This document shows, piece by piece, positions 11,307 to 32,000 of a stretch of 32,000 nucleotides of DNA. The stretch is from an uncultured Clostridia bacterium (GTDB taxonomy: Bacteria > Bacillota > Clostridia > Christensenellales > UBA1242), in contig CALVNP010000035.1 of the NCBI GenBank assembly GCA_944349805.1, positions 1 to 32,000 of the forward strand. Direction: 5' to 3'. The stretch's first letter is position 1, and each line of letters opens with the position of its first letter. The notes beneath the pieces were generated by a model that was not told the origin of the DNA, made no database searches, and worked only from the letters and a program-made list of their open reading frames with translations. The translations under genes were made by a program, and so were the position numbers.

Positions 11307-11314
11307 ATCATTTT

Positions 11315-12253
11315 TCATTTATTTATAAACTCGTTTAGTAAACTATCTGTTGGAATTATATCACTTTTTAATTTTCCGCATTTGTTAAGCATTTCAAAAA
11401 GGTCTTGAGCTTCTTCAAGGTCCATTTCCTTTAATTTTGGGGCAAGATAGTTTGCGTAAATTAATGGTTCGTACATATGGGTTGAGTCTACAATGTAATT
11501 AGCAGTTGGTTTGAATGGTTTAATATAAATCGATTCCCCACGAAGTACATTGTTCCATATTTCAAAAGTTTTTGAAAGTTCATATCCCCTAAAATTATAA
11601 TCTCTTATAAGTCTTCTCATTTGCCTTAATTTTTTTGCTGGAATTATAATGTTTTCCCCTATTGTAAAGTCTGCATTAACACATAAATATATTTTATAAA
11701 TGTCACTTTCGTGATCTTTTATAAGTGTTGGATTTAGCGCGTGTATTCCTTCAAATATAACAACTGTATTTTCTTCAAGCTTGACATCGATAAGCTCTTT
11801 TTTTCTTCTACCTGTTAAAAAGTCAAAAACGGGCATTTTTGATTGCTTTTTTTGCAAAAGTTCTTCCACAAAAATATTTAAGTATTCTAAGTCTATTGCA
11901 TTAATGCTTTCAAAATCATAACTCCCATCTGGAAGTTTTGGTGTGTCTTCTCTGTTTTTAAAAAAGTCATCTAAGGACACAACAAAACTGTGAATCCCAT
12001 TTCTTTCTAAATTAGTTCTTATTAAATGTGAAGTTGTTGTTTTACCCGATGATGATGGACCTGCAAGTAAGACAATTTTTGTTTTCAATTTTAATATATC
12101 TTTAACAATTTCATCAATTTGACATTTATATAAACTTTCAGATGTGTTTATTAGTTCGTTTAAATTTTCCTTTGCTTCCTTGTTAATTAATTCTAAGTCG
12201 AAGCTGTTTCTCATAATCGTTCCGTGACGGCGTTCAAGTTCAATTTTGTTCAT
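11315..12253 (-). CDS. Uridine kinase/phosphoribulokinase-family P-loop nucleoside kinase
   Basis: Walker A LLAGPSSSGKTTTSHLI, then SLDDFF...DFESINAIDL...MPVFDF...VVIFEGIHALNP, the Udk-family layout. The start is set at the ATG at 12253, with AAAGGAA RBS. The TTG at 12271 is not needed. Confidence 0.72.
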   Translation of the reverse strand: MNKIELERRHGTIMRNSFDLELINKEAKENLNELINTSESLYKCQIDEIVKDILKLKTKIVLLAGPSSSGKTTTSHLIRTNLERNGIHSFVVSLDDFFKNREDTPKLPDGSYDFESINAIDLEYLNIFVEELLQKKQSKMPVFDFLTGRRKKELIDVKLEENTVVIFEGIHALNPTLIKDHESDIYKIYLCVNADFTIGENIIIPAKKLRQMRRLIRDYNFRGYELSKTFEIWNNVLRGESIYIKPFKPTANYIVDSTHMYEPLIYANYLAPKLKEMDLEEAQDLFEMLNKCGKLKSDIIPTDSLLNEFINK

Positions 12254-12431
12254 AGTATTCCTTTTAAGCAAAAATTATTTTAACATATAAAAAGCGTTTT
12301 GAAAAGCTTTTTGTAAATTTTTGTCTGATTTTAATTTATGCATATAAAACAATTTTAGTCATATTAAAATACTTCTATACAGTGGTAAAGACCCTTTTTG
12401 TTACACCATCATATATTAATATAGGAGTTTT

Positions 12432-13856: not shown

Positions 13857-14860
13857 CAAATATACTTTTAGGTTTTGTTATTAGTTTTGTAATTGCAGGG
13901 CTTATTGCTCCAATAGTCTTAAATTTATGTAAAAAACTGAAAGCTTCTCAGACAATTTTACACTATGTCGAAGCACATAAAAGTAAACAGGGTACGCCAA
14001 CAATGGGAGGTATAATTTTTATTATATCTTCCATTTTATCTGCAATGTTTATAATGAAAAAGGACATCACACTTGCAGTAATTTGTTTGACTAGTATGTT
14101 TGGTTTTGGAATTTTAGGTTTTTTAGACGACTATATTAAAGTTAGATATAAGCAAAATAAGGGGTTAAGGGCATATCAAAAAATTATTGGACAACTTGGG
14201 CTTTCAATTTTGCTTGCTGTTTTTGCATATTATTCCAGCTTTGTTGGGACAGGCATTGTTGTTCCATTTACAAATTCCACCATAGACTTAGGGGCTTTTT
14301 ATATACCTTTTGTTATTTTTGTGTTTATTGCAGTTACAAACAGTGTGAATTTACTTGACGGCTTAGATGGACTTGCTGGTGGTGTCAGTTTTATATACCT
14401 TATAGGATTTATTGCAATAACAATCCTACATCTTGGTGTTGGAACAGGTTTGGCTCCAAACTTTATTTTAGAACAATATAATATGCTTGCTGTGACGGGC
14501 TGTCTTTTGGGTGGGCTTTTAGTCTTTTTAATTTTAAATGGTCACCCTGCATTAATTTTTATGGGAGATACAGGTTCATTGGCCTTAGGTGGTTTTATTT
14601 CTGCGCTTGCAGTTATGTCTGGGCTTGTTTTGTACCTTCCAATTTTAGGACTTGCTTATGTTATAACTTCACTTTCTGATGTGATTCAAGTGTTGCATTA
14701 TAAAAGGACAAAAAAAAGAGTTTTCTTAATGGCACCACTTCATCATCATTTTGAGAAAAAAGGTATGAATGAAAATAAAATTGTCATCGTATATATAATT
14801 GTAACACTATTTATTTCAGCATTGACTGTTTTAATAGCAGGTTATGTTTTGGGGGTATAA
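13853..14860 (+). CDS. mraY: Phospho-N-acetylmuramoyl-pentapeptide transferase
   Basis: 335 aa polytopic membrane protein. Motifs seen: KQGTPTMGG, LGFLDDYIKV, NSVNLLDGLDGLA, MGDTGSLALGG and APLHHHFE. ATGA overlap with murE. Confidence 0.93.
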   Translation: MTNILLGFVISFVIAGLIAPIVLNLCKKLKASQTILHYVEAHKSKQGTPTMGGIIFIISSILSAMFIMKKDITLAVICLTSMFGFGILGFLDDYIKVRYKQNKGLRAYQKIIGQLGLSILLAVFAYYSSFVGTGIVVPFTNSTIDLGAFYIPFVIFVFIAVTNSVNLLDGLDGLAGGVSFIYLIGFIAITILHLGVGTGLAPNFILEQYNMLAVTGCLLGGLLVFLILNGHPALIFMGDTGSLALGGFISALAVMSGLVLYLPILGLAYVITSLSDVIQVLHYKRTKKRVFLMAPLHHHFEKKGMNENKIVIVYIIVTLFISALTVLIAGYVLGV

Positions 14861-16146
14861 TGGAGAGAAAAAAAGTTGCAATTGTGTATGGTTTAGGTTC
14901 AAGTGGAAAATCTGCCATTAAATTTTTATCAAGTTTGGGGTATGTTTTGTATGCGATAGATGATAAAAATGAAATTTGCCCAAATGCAACTTTTGTTAAA
15001 AATTTAAGTGAAATAAATTTAAAAAATATAGATTTTGCAGTTGTAAGTCCAGGGGTTGATATTAATAATGAAAAATTACATTTATTAAAGAAAAACAACA
15101 TTAAACTTATTAGCGAGCTTGAGCTGGGAAGAAAATTCATTAAGAGTAAAATTATAGGAGTTACAGGAACAAATGGTAAAACCACTTGTGTAAATTTGAT
15201 TGATAGTATTTTAAAACAAGGTGGAAAGAAGTCAGTCAAGGTTGGAAATGTTGGAGTTCCAATCACTAGTCAAATTCCAAATTTAAATAAAAAAAATTTT
15301 GCCGTATGTGAAGTTAGTAGTTTTCAAATGGAAACGACAAATAAGTTTAAAACATATATCTCTGTTCTGACGAACATAAAACCAGACCATTTGGACAGAC
15401 ATAAAACAATGGACAACTATATATCATTAAAAGCAAAATTAATCAGTCAGGCAAAATATAAGGTTTTTAACGCAGATGATGAAATTGCATACAATTTATC
15501 AAAAAATTTTAAAAATACCATATTATTTTCTAAGAATAAAAAATGTAATGGTGCATATGTAGAGAAAGATTACATTGTATATAAAAACAAAAAGGTATTA
15601 AGTGTTAGTGATATAAAGCTTTTAGGTGAAAAAAACTTAGAAAATGTTCTTGCTTGTGTAACAGTTGCAAAACTATGTAAAATAAAAAATCAGTACATAC
15701 GAAATGCCGTTTTAAATTTTAATGCATTATCTCACAGAATTGAACTTGTTGATATTATAGATAATGTAATGTTTGTTGATGATAGCAAATCTACCAACAT
15801 TGCAAGTACTCTGTGTGCTATTCAAAGTTTTAAGGACAAGGATATAATACTTTTGCTTGGTGGAAGAGATAAAAGTTTGGACTTTTCCCCAATTTTTGAA
15901 CATAAACTTTATGGTGTTGTTTGCTACGGAGAGTGTGGTTTAAACATTTTATCTGTTGCAAAAGGCGAGCATATTTTCTATGAAGAAAACTTAAAAAATG
16001 CCTTTTATAAAGCTTATGAAATTGCAAGAGCTAATAGTGTTGTTTTGCTTTCTCCTGCGTGTGCAAGTTTTGACGAATTTGAAAACTATAAAAAACGGGG
16101 TGAATATTTTAAACACTTAGTTGAAAGACAAAAGAAGGGCTTATGA
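14860..16146 (+). CDS. murD: UDP-N-acetylmuramoylalanine--D-glutamate ligase
   Basis: 428 aa. N-terminal Rossmann segment GLGSSGKS, GVTGTNGKTT P-loop, DDSKSTN, and position between mraY and ftsW. TAATG overlap with mraY. Confidence 0.9.
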   Translation: MERKKVAIVYGLGSSGKSAIKFLSSLGYVLYAIDDKNEICPNATFVKNLSEINLKNIDFAVVSPGVDINNEKLHLLKKNNIKLISELELGRKFIKSKIIGVTGTNGKTTCVNLIDSILKQGGKKSVKVGNVGVPITSQIPNLNKKNFAVCEVSSFQMETTNKFKTYISVLTNIKPDHLDRHKTMDNYISLKAKLISQAKYKVFNADDEIAYNLSKNFKNTILFSKNKKCNGAYVEKDYIVYKNKKVLSVSDIKLLGEKNLENVLACVTVAKLCKIKNQYIRNAVLNFNALSHRIELVDIIDNVMFVDDSKSTNIASTLCAIQSFKDKDIILLLGGRDKSLDFSPIFEHKLYGVVCYGECGLNILSVAKGEHIFYEENLKNAFYKAYEIARANSVVLLSPACASFDEFENYKKRGEYFKHLVERQKKGL

Positions 16147-17261
16147 AAAAAAAGAAAATACATCTTAGTGGGTTAGAGATAACAATAATTGTTTGTGTTT
16201 TAACGCTGTGTATTTTTGGTTGTATTATGGTGTATAGTGCGAGTTATTATTCAGCTGAAAAAAATTTTAACAACAAATATTTTTTTCTTATCAAGCAAAT
16301 AATAGGTGTTGCTCTGGGAATTATTGGTATGTTTGTTGCAAGAATAATCGACCATAATAAATTAAAAAAATTCAAGTGGGTTGCCGTCATAGTAAGTGTT
16401 GTTTTATTGGTTCTTGTTTTTGTTCCGGGGTTAGGCATAGAAAATTATGGGGCAAGAAGATGGATAGGACTTGGTTTTTTTAGTATTCAACCAAGTGAAA
16501 TAGCAAAATTTGTTTTAGTCTTTTTTTGTGCTGTTCATTTGTCTGACAATTATCAAAAAGTAAAAAGTTTTAAGACGCTTCTTCCACCACTCCTTGTTGG
16601 TGGAATATTCTGTGGACTTGTTATAATTGAACCAAATATGAGCATAACAATGTGTATTGCAATTGTTTTGGTAATAATGTTATTTTTAGGGGGAATAAGT
16701 GCAAAGCATTTTACAATGCTTGCAATTCCGGGAATTGTTGCTGTTCCAACATTAATTTTTATGGAACCATATAGAGTTAAAAGATTGATGGCTTTTTTAA
16801 ATCCTTGGGCGTCTCCTCAGGCAGAAGGGTTTCAGCTAATTCAATCGTTGTATGGATTAGGTGCTGGTGGTTTATTTGGTGTTGGCCTTTTCAATTCTCG
16901 ACAAAAATATAGTTTTTTACCATTTGCCGAATCGGACTTTATTTTTTCAATAATAGGGGAAGAGCTGGGATTTTTTGGTGCAATAGGTGTGATTGCGATA
17001 TTTGTTGTTTTAATTGTTTGTTTAATTATAGTTGCTAAAAATGCTAAAACGAGATATTCAATGCTACTTGTTGCTGGTGTAGCAAGTGTGATTGCAGTTC
17101 AAGCGATATTAAATATTGCAGTTGTTACGGGCAGTATTCCACCGACAGGACTTCCACTTCCTTTTATCAGTGCAGGGAGTACATCACTTATGGTGTTTAT
17201 GAGTGCAATAGGGGTTTGTTTAAATGTTGCAAAGCAAAATACTAAAAAAGTAGCTTTATAA
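16143..17261 (+). CDS. ftsW: SEDS-family peptidoglycan polymerase FtsW/SpoVE
   Basis: 372 aa with about 10 TM segments. Motifs seen: RWIGLGFFSIQPSEIAK, QSLYGLGAGGLFGVGL, PFAESDFIFSIIGEELG and GLPLPFISAGSTS. ATGA overlap with murD. Confidence 0.88.
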   Translation: MKKKKIHLSGLEITIIVCVLTLCIFGCIMVYSASYYSAEKNFNNKYFFLIKQIIGVALGIIGMFVARIIDHNKLKKFKWVAVIVSVVLLVLVFVPGLGIENYGARRWIGLGFFSIQPSEIAKFVLVFFCAVHLSDNYQKVKSFKTLLPPLLVGGIFCGLVIIEPNMSITMCIAIVLVIMLFLGGISAKHFTMLAIPGIVAVPTLIFMEPYRVKRLMAFLNPWASPQAEGFQLIQSLYGLGAGGLFGVGLFNSRQKYSFLPFAESDFIFSIIGEELGFFGAIGVIAIFVVLIVCLIIVAKNAKTRYSMLLVAGVASVIAVQAILNIAVVTGSIPPTGLPLPFISAGSTSLMVFMSAIGVCLNVAKQNTKKVAL

Positions 17262-19470: not shown

Positions 19471-19779
19471 CTATTTAGATAGTCCAAAATCATAGTTAGC
19501 ATTTATCCTTGTTGTTTGTCCCTTATTTACAATTCTTACATAAGGATACTCTTTTTCAGGAATAAAATCATAAATGCTATGTGTTTTGGAAATAAAAAGT
19601 TTTATTCTTATTCCTTTAGCTAAACTAATGTTGGCAACAGCTTCTTTAAAAAGCTCAGGGACTTCATAAATTACCATTGAATAAAGTTTTCCATCTTCAT
19701 CAACCAATTTTTGCACAACACTGTTTTTAAGTATTTCCCTTCTGGCTTCTTTTACTGCGTTAACAAATTTTTCATCCAT
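19471..19779 (-). CDS. Hypothetical protein (102 aa)
   Basis: AAGAGG RBS 6 nt upstream of the ATG at 19779 and its own terminator. I recognise no family motif. Confidence 0.6.
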   Translation of the reverse strand: MDEKFVNAVKEARREILKNSVVQKLVDEDGKLYSMVIYEVPELFKEAVANISLAKGIRIKLFISKTHSIYDFIPEKEYPYVRIVNKGQTTRINANYDFGLSK

Positions 19780-19884: not shown

Positions 19885-20382
19885 GTGAAAGAATTTTTTG
19901 TGGGTGAAAACAACGCTTATTCAAAAATAAATGGAATAAAGCACAACTCGTATTATCAAGGGTTATTGCAAAATCTATATGCTGGTAATGATGGAGAAAT
20001 GGCAAATTTTCTTCAACTCAGTTATCAAAGTTTTATATTGTCTCCTTTTGGAAGTTCTCAAGCAAAAGTGTTTACGGAAATTGCAGAAGAAGACTTTCTT
20101 CACGCAAAATATTTGGCTCAGGCTATAATAAGTCTTGGTGGAGACCCGATTTTTTGCAGTACGCAGGGTAAATGGCTTGGCGGAAGAGTTGTTGACTATG
20201 TAAAAGGTATAAAACAAATGTTGGGGATTAATATTGAAGCGAAAGAAAAATTGATAATAGACTATAAAACTACATTAACAAAAATTGAAGAAATAGAGAT
20301 AAAAAGAATGATTGAAGGCATTTTAAATGAGGAAGAAAATCATCTTTTAAAATTGAAATCCGTTTTTCGCTCCTTACAATAA
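19885..20382 (+). CDS. Ferritin-like di-metal protein (CotJC/Mn-catalase-like or rubrerythrin-like)
   Basis: LYAGNDGEMANFLQLSYQSF resembles the CotJC/Mn-catalase N-terminal helix. There are two ExxH motifs (EIAEEDFLH and NEEENHL). The start is uncertain: GTG at 19885 or 19900, neither with an SD. Confidence 0.6.
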   Translation: MKEFFVGENNAYSKINGIKHNSYYQGLLQNLYAGNDGEMANFLQLSYQSFILSPFGSSQAKVFTEIAEEDFLHAKYLAQAIISLGGDPIFCSTQGKWLGGRVVDYVKGIKQMLGINIEAKEKLIIDYKTTLTKIEEIEIKRMIEGILNEEENHLLKLKSVFRSLQ

Positions 20383-20489: not shown

Positions 20490-20519
20490 TTGATAAAAAA
20501 ACCTTAAATAGTGTACAAT
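20490..20519 (+). promoter_or_regulatory. Candidate promoter of the giant gene
   Basis: TTGATA (20490-20495), an 18-nt spacer, then TACAAT (20514-20519). AGGAG RBS at 20568-20572 lies 5 nt before the ATG at 20578. Confidence 0.35.
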
Positions 20520-20577
20520 AATTACAAATAATGGGCTTTTTAATTTTTGCAAAATACAAAAGAGCTTAGGAGTTTGT

Positions 20578-20646
20578 ATGAAAAAATTTAAGGTTTATTT
20601 AATTGCTTCATTTTGTATGCTTGTTGGATTAATTTTGACGGCGTGT
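20578..20646 (+). other. Lipoprotein signal peptide with lipobox L-T-A-C
   Basis: Basic N-terminus (MKKFK), a hydrophobic core, and TTG ACG GCG TGT at 20635-20646 encoding LTAC with Cys23 as the predicted lipidation site. Confidence 0.8.
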
Positions 20647-23600
20647 GGCAATGTAAAGGTAAAGTTTAATGAAAATGAAATAACAATGTCAGTGGGACAA
20701 GAACTTGAACCCTCTGCTTTTTTAATGCTGGAAGGAGTGGAAGTTAAAGATGTTGATTTCCAATCTAGCAACATTGATGTTGTATACATAACTCCCCAAA
20801 ACACATTTGTTGCACGTGGAGTGGGTAGTTGTGTTATATATGCAAATGCTAGTGGAAGTTATTCTCAAATTTCTGTTAATGTTAAAGGAAATCCTGTAAA
20901 CCTAAGCACACCTTTAGGATTGATGTACTCTAATGGAAGATTATCTTGGCAAGAGGTTATTGAAAGTGTAGATGATAAACTATATGTTTGCGATAGTTAT
21001 GAGATTGAACTTATTAAAGATGACGAAACCATTGTTATTAGCAATATTGTTACAAACTATTATGATATAAACGCTTCTGGAGTCTATAAGGCAAGAGTTA
21101 GAGCTGTTGGAAATTCTAATTTTATTCCATCAGAGTTCAGTGAACAAATTGAATTTTCTGCAATATTTGCAGTTACAAATTTAAATTATGATGAAAACAC
21201 ATCATCGTTGGTTTGGACTGATGATAAAAATTCATCTGGAACAATATATAAAATAATTAAAAACGGGGTATATTTAGATAACAAGATAACTAAAAATGAC
21301 AATGTCAATTATAGCTTTAACATAAATGTTGCAGGTGGAGAACCTGTAAGTTTACAAGTTGTTTCTGTAATTGCAGAAAAGTACGAAGCAAAAAGTGATG
21401 TGTTAAAACTTACAAAGTTAAATGCAATAACAATTCAAGTCCTAAACGGAGAAATAACTTGGAACGAAGTTGCTGGGGCAAGTGAATATAGTGTGTTTGT
21501 AGAGAATATTTCAACAGGAGTTGTTGATAATATTTTGGTTGATTCTACAAGTTATAGTGTGTCAGGTAAAAGCGCAGGGCAGTATAAGGTTTATGTAAAA
21601 GCCGTTTCTTCTTCTCAAGATATCTTGCAAAGCGACAAATCAAATGAATTGACAGTAACAAAACTTCCACAAGCAAATTTGTCCTATAATAAAACGGACA
21701 AAACTTTTACTGTTGGAAACACATCTACCTATTCTCCTGTTATTGTAATAAAAAACAGCAGTGGGGAAGTTCAAAACTTAGAAAATGGAACTTATACATT
21801 TGACAAACAAGATTTAGATATGTACTCAATTTGTGCATACTTTAAGGCAACAACAAATGAAGAAATAAATGGAGACTTCTCCAAAACATATAATATATCA
21901 CAACTCGGTACTGCAACTTTAAACCATTTTGAAAATGAAAATTCCAATGTGATTACATTTGATTCCATTTTGAATGCAAACACATATAAAGTATATGTAA
22001 AACAAAACGATGGACAGTATACAGAACTTGCAACTTTTGAAGCAGGTCAAAATTTAAGTGAAACATTTGTTATTGGTCAAAATTTATTTAGTCAAGCAGG
22101 TTACCATACAATAAAGGTTGAAGTTATAAATAATGGTGACGATTATAGCATTTATCTTTCATCAGAAATGACATTAGAAGTTGAAAGGTTGGAAAATGTT
22201 CAAAATGTAATTGTTGAAGATAATCTTGTTTCTTGGGACGCAGTACAAAATGCAGAAGGTTATGAGTATTTCTTTAATGTTTATGGAACTGATGAAATTG
22301 TTGGTGGTGTTCAAAAAACAACAGCAACCAGCATTGCAATTCCACAAACATTGAGTTTTGGCAAGTATTCATTAAATGTTAAGGCGCTTGGAAATAATGA
22401 AAATGTGTTGTCAAGTGTCGATTATAGTCAAAGTCCACAAATCACCATAATTGAGCAATTGCCATCTCCTGAACTAACATTTGACAAAGAAAATAATTTA
22501 TTAACCTTGATACCAAAAGATAGCATACAGGGAACGACCTATAAACTTGAATTTTATAATCCACAAGGAAGTTTAATCTTCTCAGAAACATCACTTCAAA
22601 ATGATAGGTTTGAAAAAAATATACAAGAATTTTTAACTAGCGCTGGCGTTTATAGGGCAACAGCACAAGCAATAAACGTCAATCCACTTGTTGAATATTC
22701 TCCAATTTATGAAATACACATTGAAAAACTTGAAGCACCTAACTATATTAAGGTGGCAAATAATGTTGTTGGAATTGGAGATAGTCTTAATGGAATTGAA
22801 GGAGTGTTGACAACAGATCCAATTTTAGTATTTGTCAATGGAGAAAAAACTTCTGTCCTATTAAATGAAGAAGATGAGTTTAATATTGAAGTTTGTTATC
22901 AATCAGCTCAATTTAGTATTGTTGAAGGAATAAAAACATATTTTGTCAATAGTGACTATTCGGAATTTAAAGTGAATAGGCTTTCCGTTCCTTCAAACAT
23001 AAAATATGATTTTATAAATAAAAAAATTGTTTGGGATTCAGTGTATGGTGCAGATGCATATGGAGTTTATATAAACGGCTCGCTTCAAAGTAAAGTTGAC
23101 ACAAATGAATATGTATATGAAACCAGCAATGCATTTAAATTTAAAATTATGTCCTTTGCAAATGATAATGAAAAATTAGGTAAGGCTTCTCTTGGAAATG
23201 TTGGATATGTTTCATCTCGTTTTTCAGAAGATATTGTTGTAGAGAAGGCAAATAGTGTTACAGGATTAAAACTTGATATAACAGAAGAAACAATTTGTTT
23301 AAGCTGGAATGAGTCAGAAGAGTCTGGATTGATATATTTAATTTATGTTGATGAAGACTTGGTTGGACAAACAGACCAAAATGAATTTGTTTTAACATCA
23401 AGCTTTAGCGAAGCAAAAACTTATGAAATTTCCGTTATTTCAACTTCATTAAATTTGCTTAACAGTGAAAAAAGCTCTGTACAACTCCAAAAACTTGCTT
23501 CTCCTACACAATTAACAAAACAATTAATGTATGACAAGTATAGTTTAACTTTAATTGAAGGAGCTCAATCGTTTAGTGTTGACGGAGTTGTATTGACAGA

Positions 23601-26600
23601 ATTAGATTTGACCAATTTAACAATGAATGATGGCGAAGTGCAAAAAAGAGTTAAATTTAATGCTATTTCTTCGGAATCTATCATAGATGGCCATTATTAT
23701 TTATCAAGCGAAGAGAGTGTGTTTACATTTAAAAGGCTGGCAACTCCAACAAATTTAACATACAAAAATGGAATTGTTGGTTTTGATGAGGTTATAAATT
23801 CTACTTATATTATTGAAATTGAAGATGACAATGGTATAACAACAAGAACTAGCGAAACAAATTCCATAGATTTAAGTGAATTAACAAATGAATTTACATT
23901 CAAAGTGAAAGCTGTTTCTAAGTTTGGAAACTTGCAAGCTAACACCGATGAAATAACCTATTTAGATTCTGAGTTCTCTGATTCTTATTCTGTTATAAAA
24001 GAAAATTCGGTAAGTAATTTAAAACTTGTAAAAACACTAGATGGATTGAAAATTGAATTTAAGTGGAATTCAAAAGAACAGAACACGCCAAACACACCAA
24101 CATTTAAAATTCAAATAGATGGGAAGTATGCTGACGGCGTAATCTCAAATGATGGAAATGTTTATAGTTTTGAATTTGAAGAAAAATTTAATGAAATTAA
24201 GATTTATACAATAAGTGTTCAAGTTGTAGGAGAAAATTTCCTTTCTTCAAATGAAGAAAGCATCTATGTTGAAAGAATTAATGCACCACAAAGTGTATGC
24301 GTTATAGAAGGTGTTGTTACAGTTAACAATGTTCCACAAAATAAAATTGCAAACATTTTAATAAATGGCGAACTGCAAAATTCTATAAATTTAAATACTT
24401 TAAGTGAGAATTCTAATCAAAAAATAAGTGTACAGTACATAGCTCCAAATTTTGAAGATATAACAGATGGACATTATTATTTAGACAGTTTTGAAACTGT
24501 ATTTATGACATACAAGCTTTTCACCCCAACAGATTTAAAAGTTGAAAACGGCAATTTGGTATGGAAGCAAGATGCAAAAGCAAGTTCTTACACTGTAAAA
24601 GTTACAAATTCTACAGGTGAAGAGCTAATTATAGAAAATTTAACACAACCAAATTTAGCTCTTTCAGACGAGCAACTTTTAAATTTTGTAAATGAAATTG
24701 GAAATTACAATGTCCAGGTTAGATACATAACAGATGACATAGCCAATTTGACAGCTTATGTTGAAGAAGAAAACTCTCCAATAGCAAATATAAGTTCTAA
24801 TTATAGTGATGTATTTGTTTTAACAAAACTCAGCGATGTTGGAGTGTTAAATGTTTCTACAAATGATTTAGATCCAGAACAAAAGGAAGTTACAGTCAGC
24901 TGGTCAGCTGTTGAAGGCGCTTCAAATTATTCTGTTTATGTAAATGATATTTTAATAAATACAATTACAGATAATACTATTGTTTTAAAAAGCGAAGTTG
25001 CATCAAGTGGGAATTATACAGTTTCTGTAAGAGCAAATGCTAACGACAAAATAAGTTCAGAAATGTCCTATGTTTCATTTAAAAGACTTGCAAAAGTAAA
25101 TTATGCAAGTGTAGATGCAAATGCAAATGTTACTTGGGAAAAACTTGAAAATTATTCGTATTATTTGATTATGTATATTGACTCAACATCTGAAATATTT
25201 TATGAAAATGTTGTTGAAACAAACAATATTGACTTTTCAGCAAATGAAAATCTATTAAACTTTGCAGGTGGTTATGTTTACTTTAAAGTTTTAGTAAAAG
25301 GTGATGGCACAACAACACTTTCTGGTGATTACTATGAATTCTCTGCTTTAAAACTCTCTGCCCCTAAACTTGTTGTAAAAGCTTCTATGCTTACAATGGA
25401 AGAACAGGGAATTGCATTACAAGGAAGTTATTCTTTTAGTTTAACAATAGAACATAATGGGAAATATGCATTAGATAATTATGGTGCAGAAATTAATAAT
25501 ATAGTTTTTAACAACGGGCAATCTTTCAGTTATCCAAACTCTTGGGACAGTGGAGATTATACCTTTAAAGCAAGAGCTGTTTCCAATACTATAAATGTCA
25601 TCAGCTCTAATGTTTCTAGTGTTACAAAAACAAGATTGGAAACTATTTCGAACCATAAATTTATTCGTGAAACACTTTCTGATGAAGTAAAAACAACATA
25701 TCATAGTGATAGTGCAGTGGAATATTTAAGTGACAAAATCTATATTGATTTTGACGCATCAGAAAATGCAACAAATTATCAATTAAACATTGGTGGTTAT
25801 ACCACAACATTACAACTTTCTAATTCCAGAATTGATATAGATAATGAAATTGATGCTCGTTTAAATGGCAAGTTCACAATCTATGTAACATCTCTTGCAA
25901 CTGATGATTCTAACTTTATTAACTCAGCTAGATATGAAATTACAGGAACTAGACTTTCTGCTTTAAGTTATGATGATTTTAAAACTAACAATGGAAAGGT
26001 TTCTTGGGTTGATAATCAAAATGGTGTAAGTTACTATCTTATTAAAATTTCAGAAGACCAAAATGAACCTTGGGGATATTGGCAGAGCGCTGATTCCAAT
26101 GTTAATTCTGCAAGTTTAAACGGCATAAATGAAGGGACAAAATCTTACAACATAAAAGCGCTGGGAAATATTACAGTAGATGGTGTTTCAGAAAATGTTG
26201 TGTTAGATTCACAATATTTAACACAAACAAAACAGTTTACAAAACTTGCAAAACCTTTTGTTACTGTAAAAAACGGATTTATAACACTTGCAAATAGAAT
26301 AGAAGGGGCTTCATCTTATTATGCAGTTATTGGAGAAAATAGGTATATTTTAGGAGATTATTCATCTCTCACCCCAGATCAAAACGATTTTGTAGGCTAT
26401 AATAATGATTTAGCAAATGCTTTACAATCCAACACACTATATTCTTTACAGGTACAAGCTTGTGGGGGAAATAGTGAAATATATTCTGATTATTCCGATG
26501 CAATAAATGTTAAGTTTTTAAGCAATGCAAATGTTGATACAAACAGCATAAAATTGATGCTTGACCCATCAGGAGATTTGACAAAAACAAAACTTGTTTT

Positions 26601-29600
26601 CAATATAGATATTAATGGTAAAGGTGCTATAATTAGGTATCAAAATACATTTGTTTTGTATAATTTTGTCCCAACATCTACAACTTTCTATCTTGATAGG
26701 GAAAATTTAACAATTTATGCTAATCAAAACATTTCAATTGCTTCAATGGGTAGTAGTGAAATTGAAAGTGGTGGTTTTTATTACTTAAATTCAGATTTTT
26801 CATATAGTAAAACCATTTCAAAATTAAACGAACCTACAAATGTTAGAATTGAAGATGGAATAATCAAATGGAATGGTGTGAGTGAAGCAAGTGGTTACTA
26901 TGTTTATGTTAATGGAAGCAAGTTATACACAAACAATATTTATGAAATATACACCAAAAATTCACTTGATTTGTCTGAATTTGGCTATGGCAGTTTGGAG
27001 GATAACAAAATATACTCGATAGGAGTTGTTGCAGTATGTCAGACAACGGACTATATTTCAAGTATGTGGAATGGTGGAGCTAATGATGTATCCGAAGAAA
27101 CATCATATTACATTGAAAATGTTGTACTTCCACACGCTCCTTTACAAATTGATATAATTGATGGTTCTTTGGTTTGGAATTCTGGATTAAGTGGATTAAA
27201 TGGAAGAGATATCAATTTGTTGACATTAGCAACATATCTTAACCAATTGTTAAATGAACCTATTTTACTATTGTATAATAGTGGTTCTTTAACTGATATG
27301 AAATTAAATTTTGGGTTGCCAACAATTGATTTGCAATTCACTAATATAAATAGTGGTGAAGTGTACCATACGACATTAAATTCCAATATAGGCTTTAATG
27401 CAACAGGGCAAATTGAAATCAATTTTGAATATTTGGATTTAATAAATGTTTCCGAAGAACAGGTTAACAAGTTAAAAGAATTAAAAAATGTATTGATTGA
27501 TAATTCTATTATGGCAGAGGACTCCATAGAGATTATAATTCTTGATAAAATGATTGAAATATTTGAAGAAAGATTGTCATTACAAGAAATAGGACTTCCA
27601 AACATTAATAAATTCATAGAAGAAATTAAGGAAAACAATAACATTCCTGCTGGTAAATATAATTTACAAATAAGACAAATTGGTGATACGGTTTTCTTGA
27701 ACTCTAATTATAATCAAGCAAAAGAAATTTATATTCCACAAGCTCCTAGCAATATTACAATAGAAGCGCCAACAACGATAGAATCAGAAAGACAATTCTA
27801 TCTTAGCTGGGATAATGTTACAATTGATAGTACTGTTGGATATACTGTTGAGCAAAAATATTTGGTTATTGTTGAAGATATTTATGGAGCTAGAAGGGTT
27901 GTTGCAAGAGTAAACGAAGATGTATCTAGTGAAAACAATAGAACAAGAATAAATTTAACTGACCTTGTCAATGACGATTTATTGACTCCAGATGATATCA
28001 AAATTTTTGTTGTTGTTGCAGGAGATAGCAACAAGACAATTTATGGTCGTATGTCCGATGTCCTTAATATTACGGTTTTGCCACAAGTTGAGTCTTATAT
28101 GGATAAGGGTTACCTATCTTGGAAAACAATACCATCTGCTTATGGAGTTCAAATTATTGCAGTGGGCGATACCCAAACTCTATCCACAACTGTTAAACTT
28201 TCTGACTATACCAGATGGGCAGGAGATGATTTGATTGCAAATATAAGTTATTCAACATCTATTAGAGCTGTGGGCGAAGTTTATGTTTCTACAAATAACG
28301 ATGGTGTAAAAACTTATGTTATTTCTGGTAAAAAGACTGAATTTACATTAAATAAGCTTAGTGCTCCAAGTGTTTCTGTTAACACAAAAGGAATATTTAT
28401 TTGGTTAGAAGTTGTTGGGAATGTAAGTGGTTACTTAATTGATGTGAACGGACAAGAAATAAGCTTAACTCCAACAACCACTCAATATGAAAGCACATTT
28501 GCTGGCTATAATAGATATCAGTTTAGAGCGCAAGGTGATACTTGTGATATTCAAGAGTTTAATACTTACTATTTAAGTTCACTTCCAAATAAACAAGATG
28601 GTAAAAGCTACTATGGTATTTATGGTTTTATGTTACCAGAAGTTACTGAGATTCAAATTGAAGAAGGTAAATTAAAGTGGAAAAAATTAGAATCGTTAAA
28701 CAATATAAACGAAATTGATGATAAGGAAAATTACAAGCAAAACATTATATATAAATTGATAATCGGCGAAAAAGTTATATATGTAGAACAAGACAGCTAC
28801 TTAAAAGATGATTATATAATATATGATAATTTCTCAGATTTAGAGTCTGGGACATACAATATGTCAATTCAAGCATTTGTTTATTGGAAACCAATAGATA
28901 GTATGGGAACATTACCTAACATTGTGTCTACATTAGAAAATTATTCACAAGGAATTAAGGATTATTATGCTCTTCTTGGAGAAAAGAGTTCTACTCAAAG
29001 TGGAGAAATAAGTAAGGCAAAAAGCATAACGAGTGGACTAAATGTTAATAATGTAATAGCAGTTGAAAACGGTATGCTTGTATGGGATTTTGTAACTGAA
29101 AGTTTAAATAACGGGGGCAAGAAACATCTAGATTATATATTGACCTTTGCATTGGACGAAAACTTTACATCAGGAATTATAACAACCAATGTAAGCTTTG
29201 ATGGAAATGAGTTATATGCAAAATGGTGGGATGAAGTTTTAGTTGAAGGTGTAAATTACTATGTTAAAATTAATGTTAATGGAAAAACAGAATATTTGAA
29301 TTCTTCATTTACTCCTTATGCAGATAATTCTCAAAGTCCTATTGTTTACAAAGTTACATCGCCTTTGAATTTCCAGAATATATTGTATGATGGCTACAAT
29401 AGTATCACACCAAAAGGTGATGAGATAAATGGAAATTCAATTGAAATAAAACTTAAAAAATCAGTTAATGTATTGTCTCCAACCTATAACATTGGTTTTG
29501 AAATTAGATATAGGGCAATTGGTAGTGATGATGAAACTCCTTGGAATTATTATGATTTCGGGAAATTGAACAATATGGTTTCAGATGACATAGTAGAATA

Positions 29601-31272
29601 TTCCTTGGATATATCCAAATTAGGTGGAGTTAATTCATTCGAATATCAAATTCAAATGACACTATTAGATAAAGATAATCAAAAATACTTAAAATCAAAT
29701 TGGTCGGAATTAGATACATTCAATACACCAACACAAGTTGAAGAAATTTATTATGACGAATCTACATATGAATTCTATTGGAAAGATGAAAAAATAGAAG
29801 ACACAGAAACTTATTATGGTTATATAATTTTAGATGAGTTGTTAAACGAAGATGGTTCAATCTTGGAAAGCTATAAGTATATAATACCAGCTGGTTCACA
29901 CTATTCACTTGATTATATAAAATCGTCTAATGGAACAAGATATGTTTACTATGCTCCATTTGAGATAGGCAACCATAGGATTTCAGTCAGAAAAACAGCA
30001 GATAATCAGGGTGCATTAATTTCTGCTCCAACTTATTATAGTGAAAATGGAGAAGAATTTACTGTTTATAATTTTGACTTGTTTGAAGTTGAAAATTTAT
30101 CTGGATTAAATCACGGTTCTGCAGAAAATCCATATTTAATTTCAGATTCAGAAGATTTTGCAAACATAAAAGCTAGACCAACAAAATACACATATATGAC
30201 TAGTTATACTGATAAGAATAATATAAGTAAAACTTCCGATTCTACTTATACATTTAGACAAAATAACGATATAACAATTACAATTAACAATTATTTCTTG
30301 TCAAAGTTTGATAATGTTTATGACGGAAATGAAAAAACTTTAAACTACACTATAATTAATACAAGTGCTAACGCAACCTTATTTAATAACATCGGAACAA
30401 ATGGTGTGTTTAAAAATACAAAAATTAATGTTACTTTGCAAGCTAATAGTGGAAGTGTAAACTTCGCAAGTATTGCATATCAGAATAATGGTTTAGTTTA
30501 TAATTGTTTAATTAATGGGTTAGGAATAACAGGAAATGCTTCATCAATAAATATTGCAGGTTTTGTATTTGAAAACTATGGCACAGTTCAAGGAGCAATT
30601 TTAAATGTTAATTTAGAATCTAACAAAATTAGCAATGCTTCTGGTATTGTAAACACTAATAATGGAATAATAACACAATGTGGAAATAATGGGAACATTA
30701 CAATAAATGGCTCAAATGCAACAAGGTTGGCAGGCATAGTGTTGTATAATAATAATAGTGTAAATGAATGCTACAACAAAGGAATCTTAACTTTAAGTTC
30801 AAATGTGGGTGAGGTTTATGCTGGGGGTATAAGTGCTCAAAATGGAGCAAACTCTTCAATTAATAATTCTTACAATACAGGAATTATACAAATTAATGGT
30901 TCACATAGTATTTTAGCAATAGGAGGTATTGTTGGAAATTCTTCAACTAATTCTATTGATAACTGTTATTCAACTCAAGTAATTATTTCAGAAATAAGTG
31001 CAAATCAAGGTGCAATAATTGGCAAATTAAATTCTGCTTCTTCAGGAAGAAATAATTATTATCTTGAAGGGTCATCTTATGCGATTGGAAACATCATAGA
31101 TACATCGTTTGCTCAATCTACCTCTGAAGGTGATATGAAAGATGTAGAATTCTACAAAAAATTAAATGAATCTTCTTATGTTTATGATGAAGATAATAGG
31201 AATAATGGATATCCAATCTTGCGATGGGAAAACAATGAAAATTTACTAATAAATATTCCTTCAAGTATCTAA
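20578..31272 (+). CDS. Giant (3,564 aa) surface lipoprotein: Big_2-like domain, about 30 FN3/Ig-like modules, C-terminal GLUG-type beta-helix domain
   Basis: Single uninterrupted ORF with a good RBS. Lipoprotein signal MKKFKVYLIASFCMLVGLILTAC. About 19 copies of the FN3-type strand motif (for example GEITWNEVAGASEYSVFV, VTVSWSAVEGASNYSVYV, GIIKWNGVSEASGYYVYV). Module ends have the form ...(K/R)L followed by xxP. The C-terminus has repeated A(G)G(I/L)V..N.G.I..CYN.G units and ends in NGYPILRWEN. Confidence 0.9.
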   Translation: MKKFKVYLIASFCMLVGLILTACGNVKVKFNENEITMSVGQELEPSAFLMLEGVEVKDVDFQSSNIDVVYITPQNTFVARGVGSCVIYANASGSYSQISVNVKGNPVNLSTPLGLMYSNGRLSWQEVIESVDDKLYVCDSYEIELIKDDETIVISNIVTNYYDINASGVYKARVRAVGNSNFIPSEFSEQIEFSAIFAVTNLNYDENTSSLVWTDDKNSSGTIYKIIKNGVYLDNKITKNDNVNYSFNINVAGGEPVSLQVVSVIAEKYEAKSDVLKLTKLNAITIQVLNGEITWNEVAGASEYSVFVENISTGVVDNILVDSTSYSVSGKSAGQYKVYVKAVSSSQDILQSDKSNELTVTKLPQANLSYNKTDKTFTVGNTSTYSPVIVIKNSSGEVQNLENGTYTFDKQDLDMYSICAYFKATTNEEINGDFSKTYNISQLGTATLNHFENENSNVITFDSILNANTYKVYVKQNDGQYTELATFEAGQNLSETFVIGQNLFSQAGYHTIKVEVINNGDDYSIYLSSEMTLEVERLENVQNVIVEDNLVSWDAVQNAEGYEYFFNVYGTDEIVGGVQKTTATSIAIPQTLSFGKYSLNVKALGNNENVLSSVDYSQSPQITIIEQLPSPELTFDKENNLLTLIPKDSIQGTTYKLEFYNPQGSLIFSETSLQNDRFEKNIQEFLTSAGVYRATAQAINVNPLVEYSPIYEIHIEKLEAPNYIKVANNVVGIGDSLNGIEGVLTTDPILVFVNGEKTSVLLNEEDEFNIEVCYQSAQFSIVEGIKTYFVNSDYSEFKVNRLSVPSNIKYDFINKKIVWDSVYGADAYGVYINGSLQSKVDTNEYVYETSNAFKFKIMSFANDNEKLGKASLGNVGYVSSRFSEDIVVEKANSVTGLKLDITEETICLSWNESEESGLIYLIYVDEDLVGQTDQNEFVLTSSFSEAKTYEISVISTSLNLLNSEKSSVQLQKLASPTQLTKQLMYDKYSLTLIEGAQSFSVDGVVLTELDLTNLTMNDGEVQKRVKFNAISSESIIDGHYYLSSEESVFTFKRLATPTNLTYKNGIVGFDEVINSTYIIEIEDDNGITTRTSETNSIDLSELTNEFTFKVKAVSKFGNLQANTDEITYLDSEFSDSYSVIKENSVSNLKLVKTLDGLKIEFKWNSKEQNTPNTPTFKIQIDGKYADGVISNDGNVYSFEFEEKFNEIKIYTISVQVVGENFLSSNEESIYVERINAPQSVCVIEGVVTVNNVPQNKIANILINGELQNSINLNTLSENSNQKISVQYIAPNFEDITDGHYYLDSFETVFMTYKLFTPTDLKVENGNLVWKQDAKASSYTVKVTNSTGEELIIENLTQPNLALSDEQLLNFVNEIGNYNVQVRYITDDIANLTAYVEEENSPIANISSNYSDVFVLTKLSDVGVLNVSTNDLDPEQKEVTVSWSAVEGASNYSVYVNDILINTITDNTIVLKSEVASSGNYTVSVRANANDKISSEMSYVSFKRLAKVNYASVDANANVTWEKLENYSYYLIMYIDSTSEIFYENVVETNNIDFSANENLLNFAGGYVYFKVLVKGDGTTTLSGDYYEFSALKLSAPKLVVKASMLTMEEQGIALQGSYSFSLTIEHNGKYALDNYGAEINNIVFNNGQSFSYPNSWDSGDYTFKARAVSNTINVISSNVSSVTKTRLETISNHKFIRETLSDEVKTTYHSDSAVEYLSDKIYIDFDASENATNYQLNIGGYTTTLQLSNSRIDIDNEIDARLNGKFTIYVTSLATDDSNFINSARYEITGTRLSALSYDDFKTNNGKVSWVDNQNGVSYYLIKISEDQNEPWGYWQSADSNVNSASLNGINEGTKSYNIKALGNITVDGVSENVVLDSQYLTQTKQFTKLAKPFVTVKNGFITLANRIEGASSYYAVIGENRYILGDYSSLTPDQNDFVGYNNDLANALQSNTLYSLQVQACGGNSEIYSDYSDAINVKFLSNANVDTNSIKLMLDPSGDLTKTKLVFNIDINGKGAIIRYQNTFVLYNFVPTSTTFYLDRENLTIYANQNISIASMGSSEIESGGFYYLNSDFSYSKTISKLNEPTNVRIEDGIIKWNGVSEASGYYVYVNGSKLYTNNIYEIYTKNSLDLSEFGYGSLEDNKIYSIGVVAVCQTTDYISSMWNGGANDVSEETSYYIENVVLPHAPLQIDIIDGSLVWNSGLSGLNGRDINLLTLATYLNQLLNEPILLLYNSGSLTDMKLNFGLPTIDLQFTNINSGEVYHTTLNSNIGFNATGQIEINFEYLDLINVSEEQVNKLKELKNVLIDNSIMAEDSIEIIILDKMIEIFEERLSLQEIGLPNINKFIEEIKENNNIPAGKYNLQIRQIGDTVFLNSNYNQAKEIYIPQAPSNITIEAPTTIESERQFYLSWDNVTIDSTVGYTVEQKYLVIVEDIYGARRVVARVNEDVSSENNRTRINLTDLVNDDLLTPDDIKIFVVVAGDSNKTIYGRMSDVLNITVLPQVESYMDKGYLSWKTIPSAYGVQIIAVGDTQTLSTTVKLSDYTRWAGDDLIANISYSTSIRAVGEVYVSTNNDGVKTYVISGKKTEFTLNKLSAPSVSVNTKGIFIWLEVVGNVSGYLIDVNGQEISLTPTTTQYESTFAGYNRYQFRAQGDTCDIQEFNTYYLSSLPNKQDGKSYYGIYGFMLPEVTEIQIEEGKLKWKKLESLNNINEIDDKENYKQNIIYKLIIGEKVIYVEQDSYLKDDYIIYDNFSDLESGTYNMSIQAFVYWKPIDSMGTLPNIVSTLENYSQGIKDYYALLGEKSSTQSGEISKAKSITSGLNVNNVIAVENGMLVWDFVTESLNNGGKKHLDYILTFALDENFTSGIITTNVSFDGNELYAKWWDEVLVEGVNYYVKINVNGKTEYLNSSFTPYADNSQSPIVYKVTSPLNFQNILYDGYNSITPKGDEINGNSIEIKLKKSVNVLSPTYNIGFEIRYRAIGSDDETPWNYYDFGKLNNMVSDDIVEYSLDISKLGGVNSFEYQIQMTLLDKDNQKYLKSNWSELDTFNTPTQVEEIYYDESTYEFYWKDEKIEDTETYYGYIILDELLNEDGSILESYKYIIPAGSHYSLDYIKSSNGTRYVYYAPFEIGNHRISVRKTADNQGALISAPTYYSENGEEFTVYNFDLFEVENLSGLNHGSAENPYLISDSEDFANIKARPTKYTYMTSYTDKNNISKTSDSTYTFRQNNDITITINNYFLSKFDNVYDGNEKTLNYTIINTSANATLFNNIGTNGVFKNTKINVTLQANSGSVNFASIAYQNNGLVYNCLINGLGITGNASSINIAGFVFENYGTVQGAILNVNLESNKISNASGIVNTNNGIITQCGNNGNITINGSNATRLAGIVLYNNNSVNECYNKGILTLSSNVGEVYAGGISAQNGANSSINNSYNTGIIQINGSHSILAIGGIVGNSSTNSIDNCYSTQVIISEISANQGAIIGKLNSASSGRNNYYLEGSSYAIGNIIDTSFAQSTSEGDMKDVEFYKKLNESSYVYDEDNRNNGYPILRWENNENLLINIPSSI
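20653..20889 (+). other. Big_2-like bacterial Ig domain at the membrane-proximal end
   Basis: ITMSVGQELEPSAFL...VDFQSSNIDVVYITPQNTFVARGVGSCVIYANASG...ISVNV follows the Big_2 pattern (l.vG....l......v.w.SSn..va.v...G.v.a...G.a.I.a). Confidence 0.5.
22732..25089 (+). repeat. Protein-level super-repeat: three consecutive copies of a three-module (about 255-270 aa) unit
   Basis: The units span 22732-23496, 23497-24279 and 24280-25089. Each unit has an NGE-type module, an NG..(W/F)-type module and an N/S-(S/D)V..L(K/N)(L/V)-type module. Two of the NGE-type modules end in DGHYYL.S.E.VF...KL.TPT.L. The copies are clearly related as protein but diverged at the DNA level. Confidence 0.6.
30088..31269 (+). 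other. C-terminal GLUG-motif / right-handed beta-helix type domain (about 393 aa)
   Basis: AENPYLISDSEDFANI, then FRQNNDITI...FDNVYDGNEKTLNYTIIN...LFNNIG..GVFKNTKINV. This is followed by about 7 repeats of roughly 22-25 aa (IAGFVFENYGTVQGA, ASGIVNTNNGIITQCGNNGNI, LAGIVLYNNNSVNECYNKGIL, AGGISAQNGANSSINNSYNTGII, IGGIVGNSSTNSIDNCYS). The terminal sequence is NGYPILRWEN. Confidence 0.7.
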
Positions 31273-31317
31273 GTTTTGAATGTTTTGGGTTAAAATTATA
31301 ATTGATTGAATAATATT

Positions 31318-31346
31318 ATGTTAGGGAGATTTTTCTCCCTTAACAT
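31318..31346 (+). terminator. Hairpin downstream of the giant gene (weak terminator candidate)
   Basis: AGGGAGA (31323-31329), a tttt loop, then TCTCCCT (31334-31340), extendable to ATGTT/AACAT with one bulge. No clear T-tail follows. Confidence 0.4.
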
Positions 31347-31363
31347 AATTATAAAGGGAAAAT

Positions 31364-32000
31364 ATGAAAAGAACATTTTTAATTGTTATAGCATTATGTT
31401 TATCTTTATTAACAGGGTGTGGTACTGTAGATTATCAACTTATCATCAACGGAAACGGAACAATAACAGAAAGATTATATCTTCCTGTTGATGAACAATT
31501 CTTTTTATCTTCAGGGGCTACACCTACACAATTTCTTGATTTAAGAAATGAAATTATGTTATTTTCTAAAAACGAATGCGAAAGTCAATTATTAACATTT
31601 TATCAAAAAGTTGAAAATGACAGTGATATAGAAAATAAAGAAGATTTTAAAAACGGCGTTAGTATAAAATACTATTATAACAGTGAATATTTTGTTGTCG
31701 AATACAATTTTAGTAGTTCAGAAATAAGGGATTATTTTTACAATATCGAAGAAAAAAGTGAAAGTGATGAAGAAAGTGTGAGTGATAATACAAAACAAGA
31801 GAATGGGTTTTTAATAAATAAAACAGTTATCACAACACAGACAAAGTTTGCAACAACATCTAACGGAGAATTGCTTGTAAAATACTATACAGAAAAGTTT
31901 TTACAAATTGTTTTAGAAAATGCACCAATTGTTTATAGTAAAATTCCAGAACCAGAGTTCACTTATAGTTATGTTACACCACAAAAAAAATTACATTCAG
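31364..32000 (+). CDS. Lipoprotein, unknown function (5' part; runs off the window)
   Basis: Not in the ORF track because it has no stop inside the window. The ATG at 31364 is preceded by AAAGGGAA. MKRTFLIVIALCLSLLTGCGT has a classical lipobox (LLTGC). My hand translation is open for 212 codons to the window edge. Confidence 0.75.
   Translation, partial: MKRTFLIVIALCLSLLTGCGTVDYQLIINGNGTITERLYLPVDEQFFLSSGATPTQFLDLRNEIMLFSKNECESQLLTFYQKVENDSDIENKEDFKNGVSIKYYYNSEYFVVEYNFSSSEIRDYFYNIEEKSESDEESVSDNTKQENGFLINKTVITTQTKFATTSNGELLVKYYTEKFLQIVLENAPIVYSKIPEPEFTYSYVTPQKKLHS

Follow-up and report, generated by a model that had tools for sequence, protein, structure and literature searches.

In the RTX and BIg giant adhesins of diderm hosts (LapA, SiiE and MpIBP), a rod of many immunoglobulin (Ig)-like domains carries a ligand-binding region at its far end, about 100 nm or more away from the cell. 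These adhesins are secreted by a type I system with a C-terminal RTX signal, they are retained by an N-terminal outer-membrane plug, and they are built of near-identical repeats stabilised by Ca2+. In a Firmicutes, Apilactobacillus kunkeei, the proteins Giant1-5 are extracellular, measure 3,000-8,000 amino acids (aa) and represent a large share of a small genome in a gut/host-associated niche (PMC12863079). For GLUG domains the only function described is gating in the IgA1 protease, the beta-helix of the Streptococcus pneumoniae enzyme being a mobile, non-catalytic gate (PMC7695701). Here we describe the gene of a giant lipoprotein carried by a 32-kb stretch of DNA from an uncultured Clostridia bacterium of the family UBA1242 (positions 1 to 32,000 of contig CALVNP010000035.1, assembly GCA_944349805.1; hereafter the window). 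Its anatomy is well supported: an N-terminal lipid anchor, a Big_2-like domain at the base, a rod of fibronectin type III (FN3)-like modules and a GLUG beta-helix at the tip.

The GTDB family UBA1242 is that of Candidatus Caccopulliclostridium, whose type genome measures 1.0 Mb (PMC8035907). The giant gene would thus occupy about 1.1% of such a genome. The genomes of UBA1242 are mostly below 1 Mb, devoid of amino-acid, nucleotide and lipid biosynthesis and of standard transporters, and they retain sporulation genes; these bacteria were proposed to be obligate symbionts or parasites dependent on a partner (PMC12306168). They are uncultured, and they rise with age in chicken caeca (PMC13155120). 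None of these three papers mentions the giant protein.

Anatomy of the giant lipoprotein

The initial annotation of this DNA, made from the sequence alone, had read one third of the window as a single intact open reading frame (ORF). This holds: the frame (Table 1) is uninterrupted and its GC content, 28-32%, is the same as that of the remainder of the window. The mature protein is calculated at 3,541 aa and 394.7 kDa and is acidic (isoelectric point 4.4).

The protein starts with MKKFKVYLIASFCMLVGLILTAC followed by G. Residues 1-23, i.e. MKKFK-VYLIASFCMLVGLI-LTAC, have the features expected of a lipoprotein signal: the n-region is positive, a hydrophobic core comes next, and last stands a lipobox of the type [LVI][ASTVI][GAS]C, here LTAC as first noticed. 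Cys23 is invariant in the alignment of 24 family sequences, and a lipobox-like x-x-[A/G/S]-C lies near residue 23 in every complete orthologue. The signal peptide is the sole hydrophobic segment. Neither an LPxTG motif nor a C-terminal hydrophobic segment is present in the giant protein, which terminates by ...NIPSSI, and no S-layer-homology (SLH), choline-binding or cell-wall-binding (CWB) Pfam domain was matched in it. The absence of LPXTG, SLH and choline-binding anchors, as initially stated, is therefore borne out by both sequence and Pfam scans. The adjacent downstream gene also starts with a lipobox signal (LLTGC), which suggests that the lipoprotein pathway is in use.

The signal is followed by a Big_2-like Ig domain. 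A family profile of this N-terminal domain matches Big_2-type repeats of the PDB with E-values from 4e-8 to 4e-5, the best being the teneurin-like 9ifo (E 4e-8), then 7quz, 7z47 and the S-layer protein 4uid. The Pfam Big_2 model (PF02368) gives weak matches in 7 of the 12 aligned N-terminal domains (best E 0.005) and none at E<=0.1 in that of the window protein. More generally, the Pfam models fn3, Big_2 and Glug all stay under their curated thresholds on the window protein; these domain types could be assigned only by way of profiles, orthologues and predicted structures.

The stalk was searched with a profile built from four seed modules. It detects 14 modules at an independent E-value <=0.01, 23 after iteration on the giant protein itself, and about 30 segments overall, while 50 shuffled versions of the sequence yielded totals of 1 and 7 matches. 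The internal repeat seen at first is thus real. Three stretches escape the profile, each roughly one or two modules long, so that "about 30 modules" is a fair count. The modules are highly diverged, with a mean identity of about 22% in an alignment of 20 of them.

The best PDB match of the module profile is the Fn3-like protein 3mpc (E 0.0025). An AlphaFold2 (AF2) model of one module (aa 281-368, with 20 paralogous modules as alignment) has a predicted local distance difference test score (pLDDT) of 91, and its top Foldseek matches are FN3 domains (probability 1.0, TM-score 0.55-0.70). A seven-strand FN3 beta-sandwich is therefore predicted for this module, and by homology for the others, in agreement with the beta-sandwich stalk proposed earlier. 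Pfam fn3 (PF00041) remains below its gathering score of 25 bits on every tile (best tile 17.9 bits, E 0.004), and only 1 of 20 single modules reaches E 0.1 with it. The modules thus have the FN3 fold, yet they are not Pfam fn3 members by score. A scan with NCBIfam returned only a noise match (T3SS_SctI, E 0.014). Among the 20 best-aligned modules Trp is found in 12 (F or L in the others) and the strand-C Tyr in 18. Two motifs had been overstated: the strict pattern W..V.GA..Y.V, attributed to about 19 modules, occurs 3-4 times, and the ending (K/R)L + (S/A/N/P)xP, attributed to every module, occurs 8 times.

Within the stalk, a masked tile-against-rest self-BLAST revealed an ancient super-repeat of three modules, some 255-260 aa long, echoed at the DNA level by a 52-nt repeat (D1). 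At 71% identity, this is the longest DNA repeat inside the gene, in which no tandem DNA arrays were found, nor, as previously noticed, any long DNA repeats. The initial annotation explained this absence by selection against recombinational collapse. Such selection is not needed: the age and the divergence of the modules suffice. A further contribution could come from selection against misfolding, which may arise when neighbouring domains are alike. One unit of the stalk is atypical; aa 2167-2330 lie outside the coverage of the module profile, and the insertion that it contains, which looks helical, differs in length among orthologues. The residues G2196, G2359, Q2367 and G2369 of this unit are invariant.

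The C-terminal 400 aa were modelled by AF2 with 14 related heads as alignment. The model is a beta-solenoid (pLDDT 90.8, predicted TM-score 0.91) capped at its N-terminal side by NPYLI and at its C-terminal side by a small element that ends in YPIL.WE. Its five best Foldseek matches in the PDB are 3n6z, 6xja, 7uvk, 7uvl and 6xjb. The first, BACOVA_03286, a GLUG protein of Bacteroides ovatus, is the best (E 1e-4, probability 1.0), and the four others are structures of IgA1 metalloproteases from S. pneumoniae and Gemella. The distinct C-terminal beta-helix of the initial annotation is thus recovered, with GLUG beta-helices as closest structures. Pectate lyases, a serine-rich repeat protein (SRRP, 5nxk) and tailspikes are weak matches (probability <=0.57 and TM-score <=0.3 for lyases and tailspikes).

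At the sequence level, Pfam Glug (PF07581) matches 11 of 15 aligned heads (that of the window and 14 from relatives) at E<=0.1, the best at E 1.2e-12; the window head itself scores 16.8-17.0 bits, below the gathering score of 20.5. The head profile has no match at E<=1 among PDB sequences, and the link to the solved GLUG domains is made through fold comparison only. On the basis of the predicted fold, and of homology through its family, the head belongs to the GLUG beta-helix superfamily. Gly and Asn make up most of its invariant residues, the others being F, P, Y and one Arg; none of the positions invariant among the aligned family heads is Asp, Glu, His or Lys. These residues look structural rather than catalytic. 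The giant protein contains no HExxH motif, it has no match to Peptidase_M26, and no catalytic Pfam domain was matched across its 3,564 aa.

When the head model (window 30055-31269) was compared with a library of viral structures, GLUG-type beta-helices resembling it were found in predicted phage and giant-virus proteins (E about 1e-4), among them a siphovirus "putative immunoglobulin A1 protease". Judging from these predicted structures, the GLUG-type domain also circulates in viruses.

An orthologue family under purifying selection

Relatives were collected by an exhaustive phmmer search of a 15-billion-protein collection, using the last 1,200 aa as query. Of the 824 proteins found, about 30 cluster representatives are colinear with the window protein over their full length (3,150-4,223 aa), and about 800 are GLUG proteins that share the head alone. 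The seven head-only relatives that were scanned all exceed the Pfam Glug cut-off, in architectures with CWB2, chitobiase-type, GH26 or M26-N modules. A word-index search with the head alone returned one match (P0001) and thus badly under-reports the family compared with phmmer.

Twenty-four giants align end to end, with identities to the window protein from 52% down to 24% and invariant columns from C23 to G3482. They share the same layout: a lipobox and a Big_2-like domain come first, about 28-38 FN3-like modules follow, and a GLUG beta-helix closes the C-terminus. Their source names are limited to "hypothetical protein", "GLUG motif-containing protein" and "Ig-like domain-containing protein", and their source organisms are metagenome-assembled genomes (MAGs) of Clostridia, Tissierellia and Christensenellales. 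The taxonomic breadth of the family rests on these source names and on the literature, a search with a 4-sequence alignment having given 3 genome and 3 metagenome loci. The orthologue search did not place the close homologues in a characterised adhesin family, an outcome that the initial annotation had listed as counting against its novelty. The giant lipoproteins are an uncharacterised, unnamed family of UBA1242/Christensenellales, which we define here.

The three nearest orthologues are 51%, 43% and 32% identical to the window protein, evenly over the whole length; those at 51% (3,586-3,588 aa) are colinear with it. Modules are therefore far closer to their positional counterparts in other species than to each other within the protein. 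This indicates that the array predates the family and that the modules are position-specific, and it agrees with the absence of recent expansion deduced earlier. Subfamilies differ in length at two sites, where blocks of about 300 or 600 aa are present or missing. Within population-level clusters, in contrast, the length is identical in 15 of 15 members (3,586 aa) and in 12 of 12 (3,295 aa), all from independent assemblies. Variable sites in these clusters are thinly spread; there is no hypervariable region, and the head is not hypervariable.

The ratio of non-synonymous to synonymous substitution rates (dN/dS) is 0.086 over 3,391 codons. It was measured on one pair of sequences (98.9% identity), because between species (67-71% amino-acid identity) synonymous sites are saturated. 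Together, the colinear independent orthologues, the fixed lengths and the low dN/dS show that the gene is real and constrained.

The lack of DNA repeats had been taken at first as an argument against an assembly artefact. Misassembly, or an AT-rich stretch that is open by chance, deserves mention since repeat-rich genes are often misassembled and since the exact full-length protein is not in the 15-billion-protein collection. Its only near-identical entry is a 176-aa fragment (P0006) from an ENA metagenome contig of at most 3.6 kb, 99% identical to the C-terminus (window 30742-31269), which means that the same species was sampled elsewhere. An artefact has practically no credit left against orthologues assembled independently from dozens of samples and colinear from the first to the last residue, a gene without DNA repeats able to mislead an assembler, strong purifying selection and domain folds predicted with high confidence.

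Features of the gene and its surroundings

Coordinates of the features are gathered in Table 1. The promoter block, AATTTTGTTTGATAAAA ... AAATAGTGTAmAATAA, is invariant across four species while the surrounding intergenic DNA has diverged, and the sequence TAGGAG of the ribosome-binding site is kept in orthologous loci. The hairpin that follows the gene lacks a clear U-tract; it may act in termination or in stabilising the RNA. A 178-aa ORF lies antisense inside the giant gene (window 27108-27644, minus strand). Because selection on the sense frame is strongly purifying, this antisense ORF is most probably open by chance, the DNA being AT-rich.

Table 1. Position of the giant lipoprotein gene, its parts and adjacent elements in the window
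Feature	Position	Strand	Description
Giant gene	20578..31272	+	Single ORF, ATG start, 3,564 codons plus stop
Sigma-70-type promoter	20490..20519	+	-35 TTGATA, 18-nt spacer, -10 TACAAT preceded by TG (TGTACAAT); consensus scan
Ribosome-binding site AGGAG	20568..20572	+	5 nt before ATG; read directly from the sequence
Lipoprotein signal peptide	20578..20646	+	MKKFK, hydrophobic core, lipobox L-T-A-C; Cys23 is the predicted lipidated first mature residue
Membrane-proximal Big_2-like Ig domain	20647..20913	+	aa 24-112; family profile against PDB
Stalk	20923..30066	+	aa 116-3163; array of about 30 FN3-like beta-sandwich modules (70-100 aa each), strongly diverged and abutting, linkers short
Ancient three-module super-repeat	22918..24552	+	aa ~781-1065 against 1035-1325; offset 253-261 aa; 30-40% identity
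Atypical stalk unit	27133..27747	+	aa ~2186-2390; FN3-like frame DGxLxW ... GWP ... YxLxxxQxGN with variable-length insertion
Distal head	30067..31269	+	aa 3164-3564; predicted right-handed beta-solenoid, GLUG-type coils, motif GGI(A/V)xxNxGxIxNxxNxG
15-bp hairpin	31315..31349	+	43 nt past the stop codon; RNA fold -20.1 kcal/mol, z -2.3
Downstream lipoprotein, cut by the window end	31364..32000	+	MKRTFLIVIALCLSLLTGC; 43% identity to a 276-aa counterpart of Ca. Caccopulliclostridium

The nearest loci are those of Ca. Caccopulliclostridium gallistercoris and of two uncultured Clostridia MAGs. Compared with the former, UvrC is 84% and HisRS 74% identical, the giant protein 51% and the downstream lipoprotein 43%. 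The two lipoproteins therefore evolve much faster than their housekeeping neighbours, and by analogy this rapid divergence between species would be that of exposed surface proteins.

The gene order is shared: uvrC, a small ORF and a ferritin-like gene upstream, the second lipoprotein downstream, which murB, whiA and dnaE follow in the related loci. In a locus carrying a distant orthologue (L004), the giant gene has other, unrelated housekeeping neighbours, and the downstream gene is different, encoding an Amidase_3 amidase. Homologues of the downstream lipoprotein were found in close relatives only. We therefore rejected it as a conserved operon partner.

Directly upstream of the giant gene, the window carries a 102-aa ORF with no Pfam match (19471-19779, minus strand) and a 165-aa ferritin/rubrerythrin-like gene (19885-20382, plus strand). 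At the same positions the related loci L001 and L002, the latter of Ca. Caccopulliclostridium, have ORFs of 121 and 140 aa with no family match and a ferritin-like gene of 165 aa.

Further upstream, the order hisS, mini-RNase III, SpoU methylase, sigma factor, ArsR ... uvrC is common to the window and L002. The mini-III type protein (window 8171-8521) is a single Ribonuclease_3 domain of 116 aa with no dsRNA-binding domain, and its counterpart in L002 has 117 aa. Between ArsR and uvrC (window 10866-17261 compared with L002 4477-6582), the window contains a PRK-family kinase gene (minus strand) and murE-mraY-murD-ftsW, where L002 has ORFs of 395 and 154 aa. This difference is a local rearrangement involving cell-wall synthesis genes.

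A protein with VanW and PG_binding_4 domains is encoded at 2860-4431, and a VanW gene is also found near the distant orthologue of L004. From these VanW genes and the mur genes we conclude that the lineage keeps a peptidoglycan wall, which a fibre would have to cross.

Three aminoacyl-tRNA synthetase genes lie within 8 kb (416-2809 and 4585-6579 on the minus strand, 6906-8174 on the plus strand); they encode a class I enzyme of Leu/Val/Ile type, MetRS and HisRS. The 32-kb window contains no T-box leader or other Rfam family at the gathering score, and no tRNA gene. The missing leaders may reflect regulation lost in a reduced genome.

A putative surface tether and its alternatives

We propose that the giant protein is a surface tether or adhesin fibre of genome-reduced gut Clostridia, with a probability of roughly 55%. 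This reading is favoured by the layout of the protein, by its apparently non-catalytic head and by the lifestyle proposed for the lineage. The protein would be exported by Sec, its signal peptide cleaved at the lipobox, and the invariant Cys23, once lipidated, would fasten the protein by its N-terminus to the outer leaflet of the cytoplasmic membrane. The Big_2-like domain and the beads of FN3 type, joined by short linkers, would then make up a slender rod with little flexibility. If each domain spans 3.5-4.5 nm, the extended rod would reach about 100-130 nm, enough to span the wall and to project well past it. The GLUG-type beta-helix at the far end would be the ligand-binding tip, and the fibre would tether the bacterium to a partner cell, to host mucus or to a food particle. 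Since the lineage has few biosynthetic routes and transporters, and presumably depends on other cells, tethering is the most likely role. The ancient array, the position-specific modules, the fixed length and the purifying selection point to a core structural organelle rather than to a variable, phase-switching adhesin.

Several observations weigh against a tether. No feature of the sequence points specifically to adhesion. Conservation is not higher in the head than in the stalk, and the head has no hot spot of diversification, which might have been expected from a tip contacting a variable host surface. With the anchor at the N-terminus, the head would be the last part to emerge from the Sec channel and would still have to cross the peptidoglycan; its distal placement is assumed. 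The evidence for expression is the conserved promoter, and the neighbourhood, which is not conserved in distant orthologues, gives no functional hint. Finally, a fixed length and position-specific modules fit a structural ruler equally well.

Such a ruler, i.e. an envelope scaffold acting as a fixed-distance spacer, a substitute for a coat or S-layer, or a spore/exosporium appendage, is in our opinion rather unlikely, yet it has real arguments. Within populations the length is strictly constant and the head shows no hypervariability, the modules are conserved position by position and uniformly from end to end with a low dN/dS, the gene sits among core housekeeping genes (uvrC, murB, whiA and dnaE) and not in a variable island, and sporulation genes are kept by UBA1242 genomes (PMC12306168). 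What speaks for a binding fibre instead is the lone distal beta-helix on a long rod, the usual layout of such fibres, together with the rapid divergence between species (51%, compared with 74-84% for the neighbours). Moreover the protein has no lattice-forming, SLH or CWB domain, and its promoter resembles the housekeeping sigma-70 type, not the sporulation type.

The fold of the head raises two other options. Pectate lyases and phage tailspikes share the right-handed beta-helix, and GLUG domains co-occur with GH26 mannanase or chitobiase-type modules; the fibre could then hold out, away from the cell, an enzyme cleaving polysaccharides (lyase or hydrolase) or an accessory of such an enzyme, directed against the wall or capsule of a partner or against a dietary glycan. 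We find this improbable: the lyase and tailspike matches are weak compared with the probability of 1.0 obtained for GLUG domains, the only invariant charged residue of the head is an Arg, no catalytic Pfam domain was matched in the giant protein, and catalysis in GH26 and M26 proteins resides in a separate domain, the beta-helix of the IgA1 protease being a non-catalytic gate. GLUG-type beta-helices of phage proteins, and the steric hindrance that a long brush could oppose to access, would suit a shield against phages or a false receptor for them. But an arms race is expected to leave hypervariability or length variation, which are both missing here with a dN/dS of 0.086; the gene has no match to a PADLOC defence family and lies outside any defence island. 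A role as phage decoy thus appears highly improbable.

If the giant protein is indeed a tether, a bolder version can be put forward tentatively: it would be the lineage-defining partner-attachment organelle of UBA1242, a nanofibre of fixed length (about 100 nm) by which the cells dock to one particular kind of partner cell or host surface. Among monoderms it would then correspond to the structures with which episymbiotic Patescibacteria attach, and the GLUG head could serve as bait to identify the partner and thereby to culture the lineage. UBA1242 is widespread in animal guts, and its dependence was proposed with no interaction machinery named (PMC12306168). A gene that takes about 1% of a 1-Mb genome, colinear over about 30 diverged lineages and under purifying selection, is a concrete candidate for this machinery. 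The recombinant head is a testable reagent for finding the ligand or the partner. The widespread but functionally obscure GLUG domain also gains a clean setting at the tip of a fibre, and the stalk is a natural case of a 30-domain rod kept repeat-free at the DNA level.

Comparison with known systems

The GLUG beta-helix proteins (BACOVA_03286, 3n6z; the M26 IgA1 proteases 6xja, 6xjb and 7uvk) have the same beta-solenoid fold as the head and the same coil motif, GGI.G.N.G.I. Disparities nevertheless appear with the M26 proteases. The giant protein has neither the M26 protease domain nor HExxH, and its head would stand at the C-terminal tip of a lipid-anchored rod of 30 modules, not inside an enzyme. 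For the stalk, the best profile and structural matches are bacterial FN3-like spacers (CtXyl5A of Clostridium thermocellum, 5g56; 3mpc). Spacers and modules alike are seven-strand beta-sandwiches with a Trp in strand B, a Tyr in strand C and a strand F of the type Y.V.V.A, but about 30 copies, only some 22% identical to one another, follow each other here in a single chain.

By analogy, the giant protein would function as do the giant repeat adhesins known from both Gram-positive and Gram-negative bacteria. Those of Gram-positives (Ebh and SasG of Staphylococcus aureus, Aap, Bap and the SRRPs) are likewise long thin rods that display a binding domain, and the binding regions of SRRPs are also beta-solenoids (5nxk being among the weak fold matches of the head). 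The polarity is reversed here, with an N-terminal lipid anchor and a C-terminal head; there is no LPXTG/sortase signal, the repeats are not near-identical, their number is constant between strains, and no sequence homology to these adhesins was detected. By the tests that were run (LPXTG, near-identical repeats and variation in repeat number), the giant protein thus falls outside these adhesin families. To the RTX/BIg adhesins it is likened from their general description only, and none of their diagnostic features (type I secretion with an RTX signal, retention plug, near-identical Ca2+-stabilised repeats, diderm host) appears to be present here.

The proteins Giant1-5 of A. kunkeei, compared from their description in the literature, are also elongated surface proteins of several thousand residues with a beta-solenoid at one end (PMC12863079). 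In Giant1-4 this solenoid is N-terminal, and the genes form a recombining cluster of five (PMC12863079), whereas the UBA1242 gene is single, colinear and conserved throughout its family.

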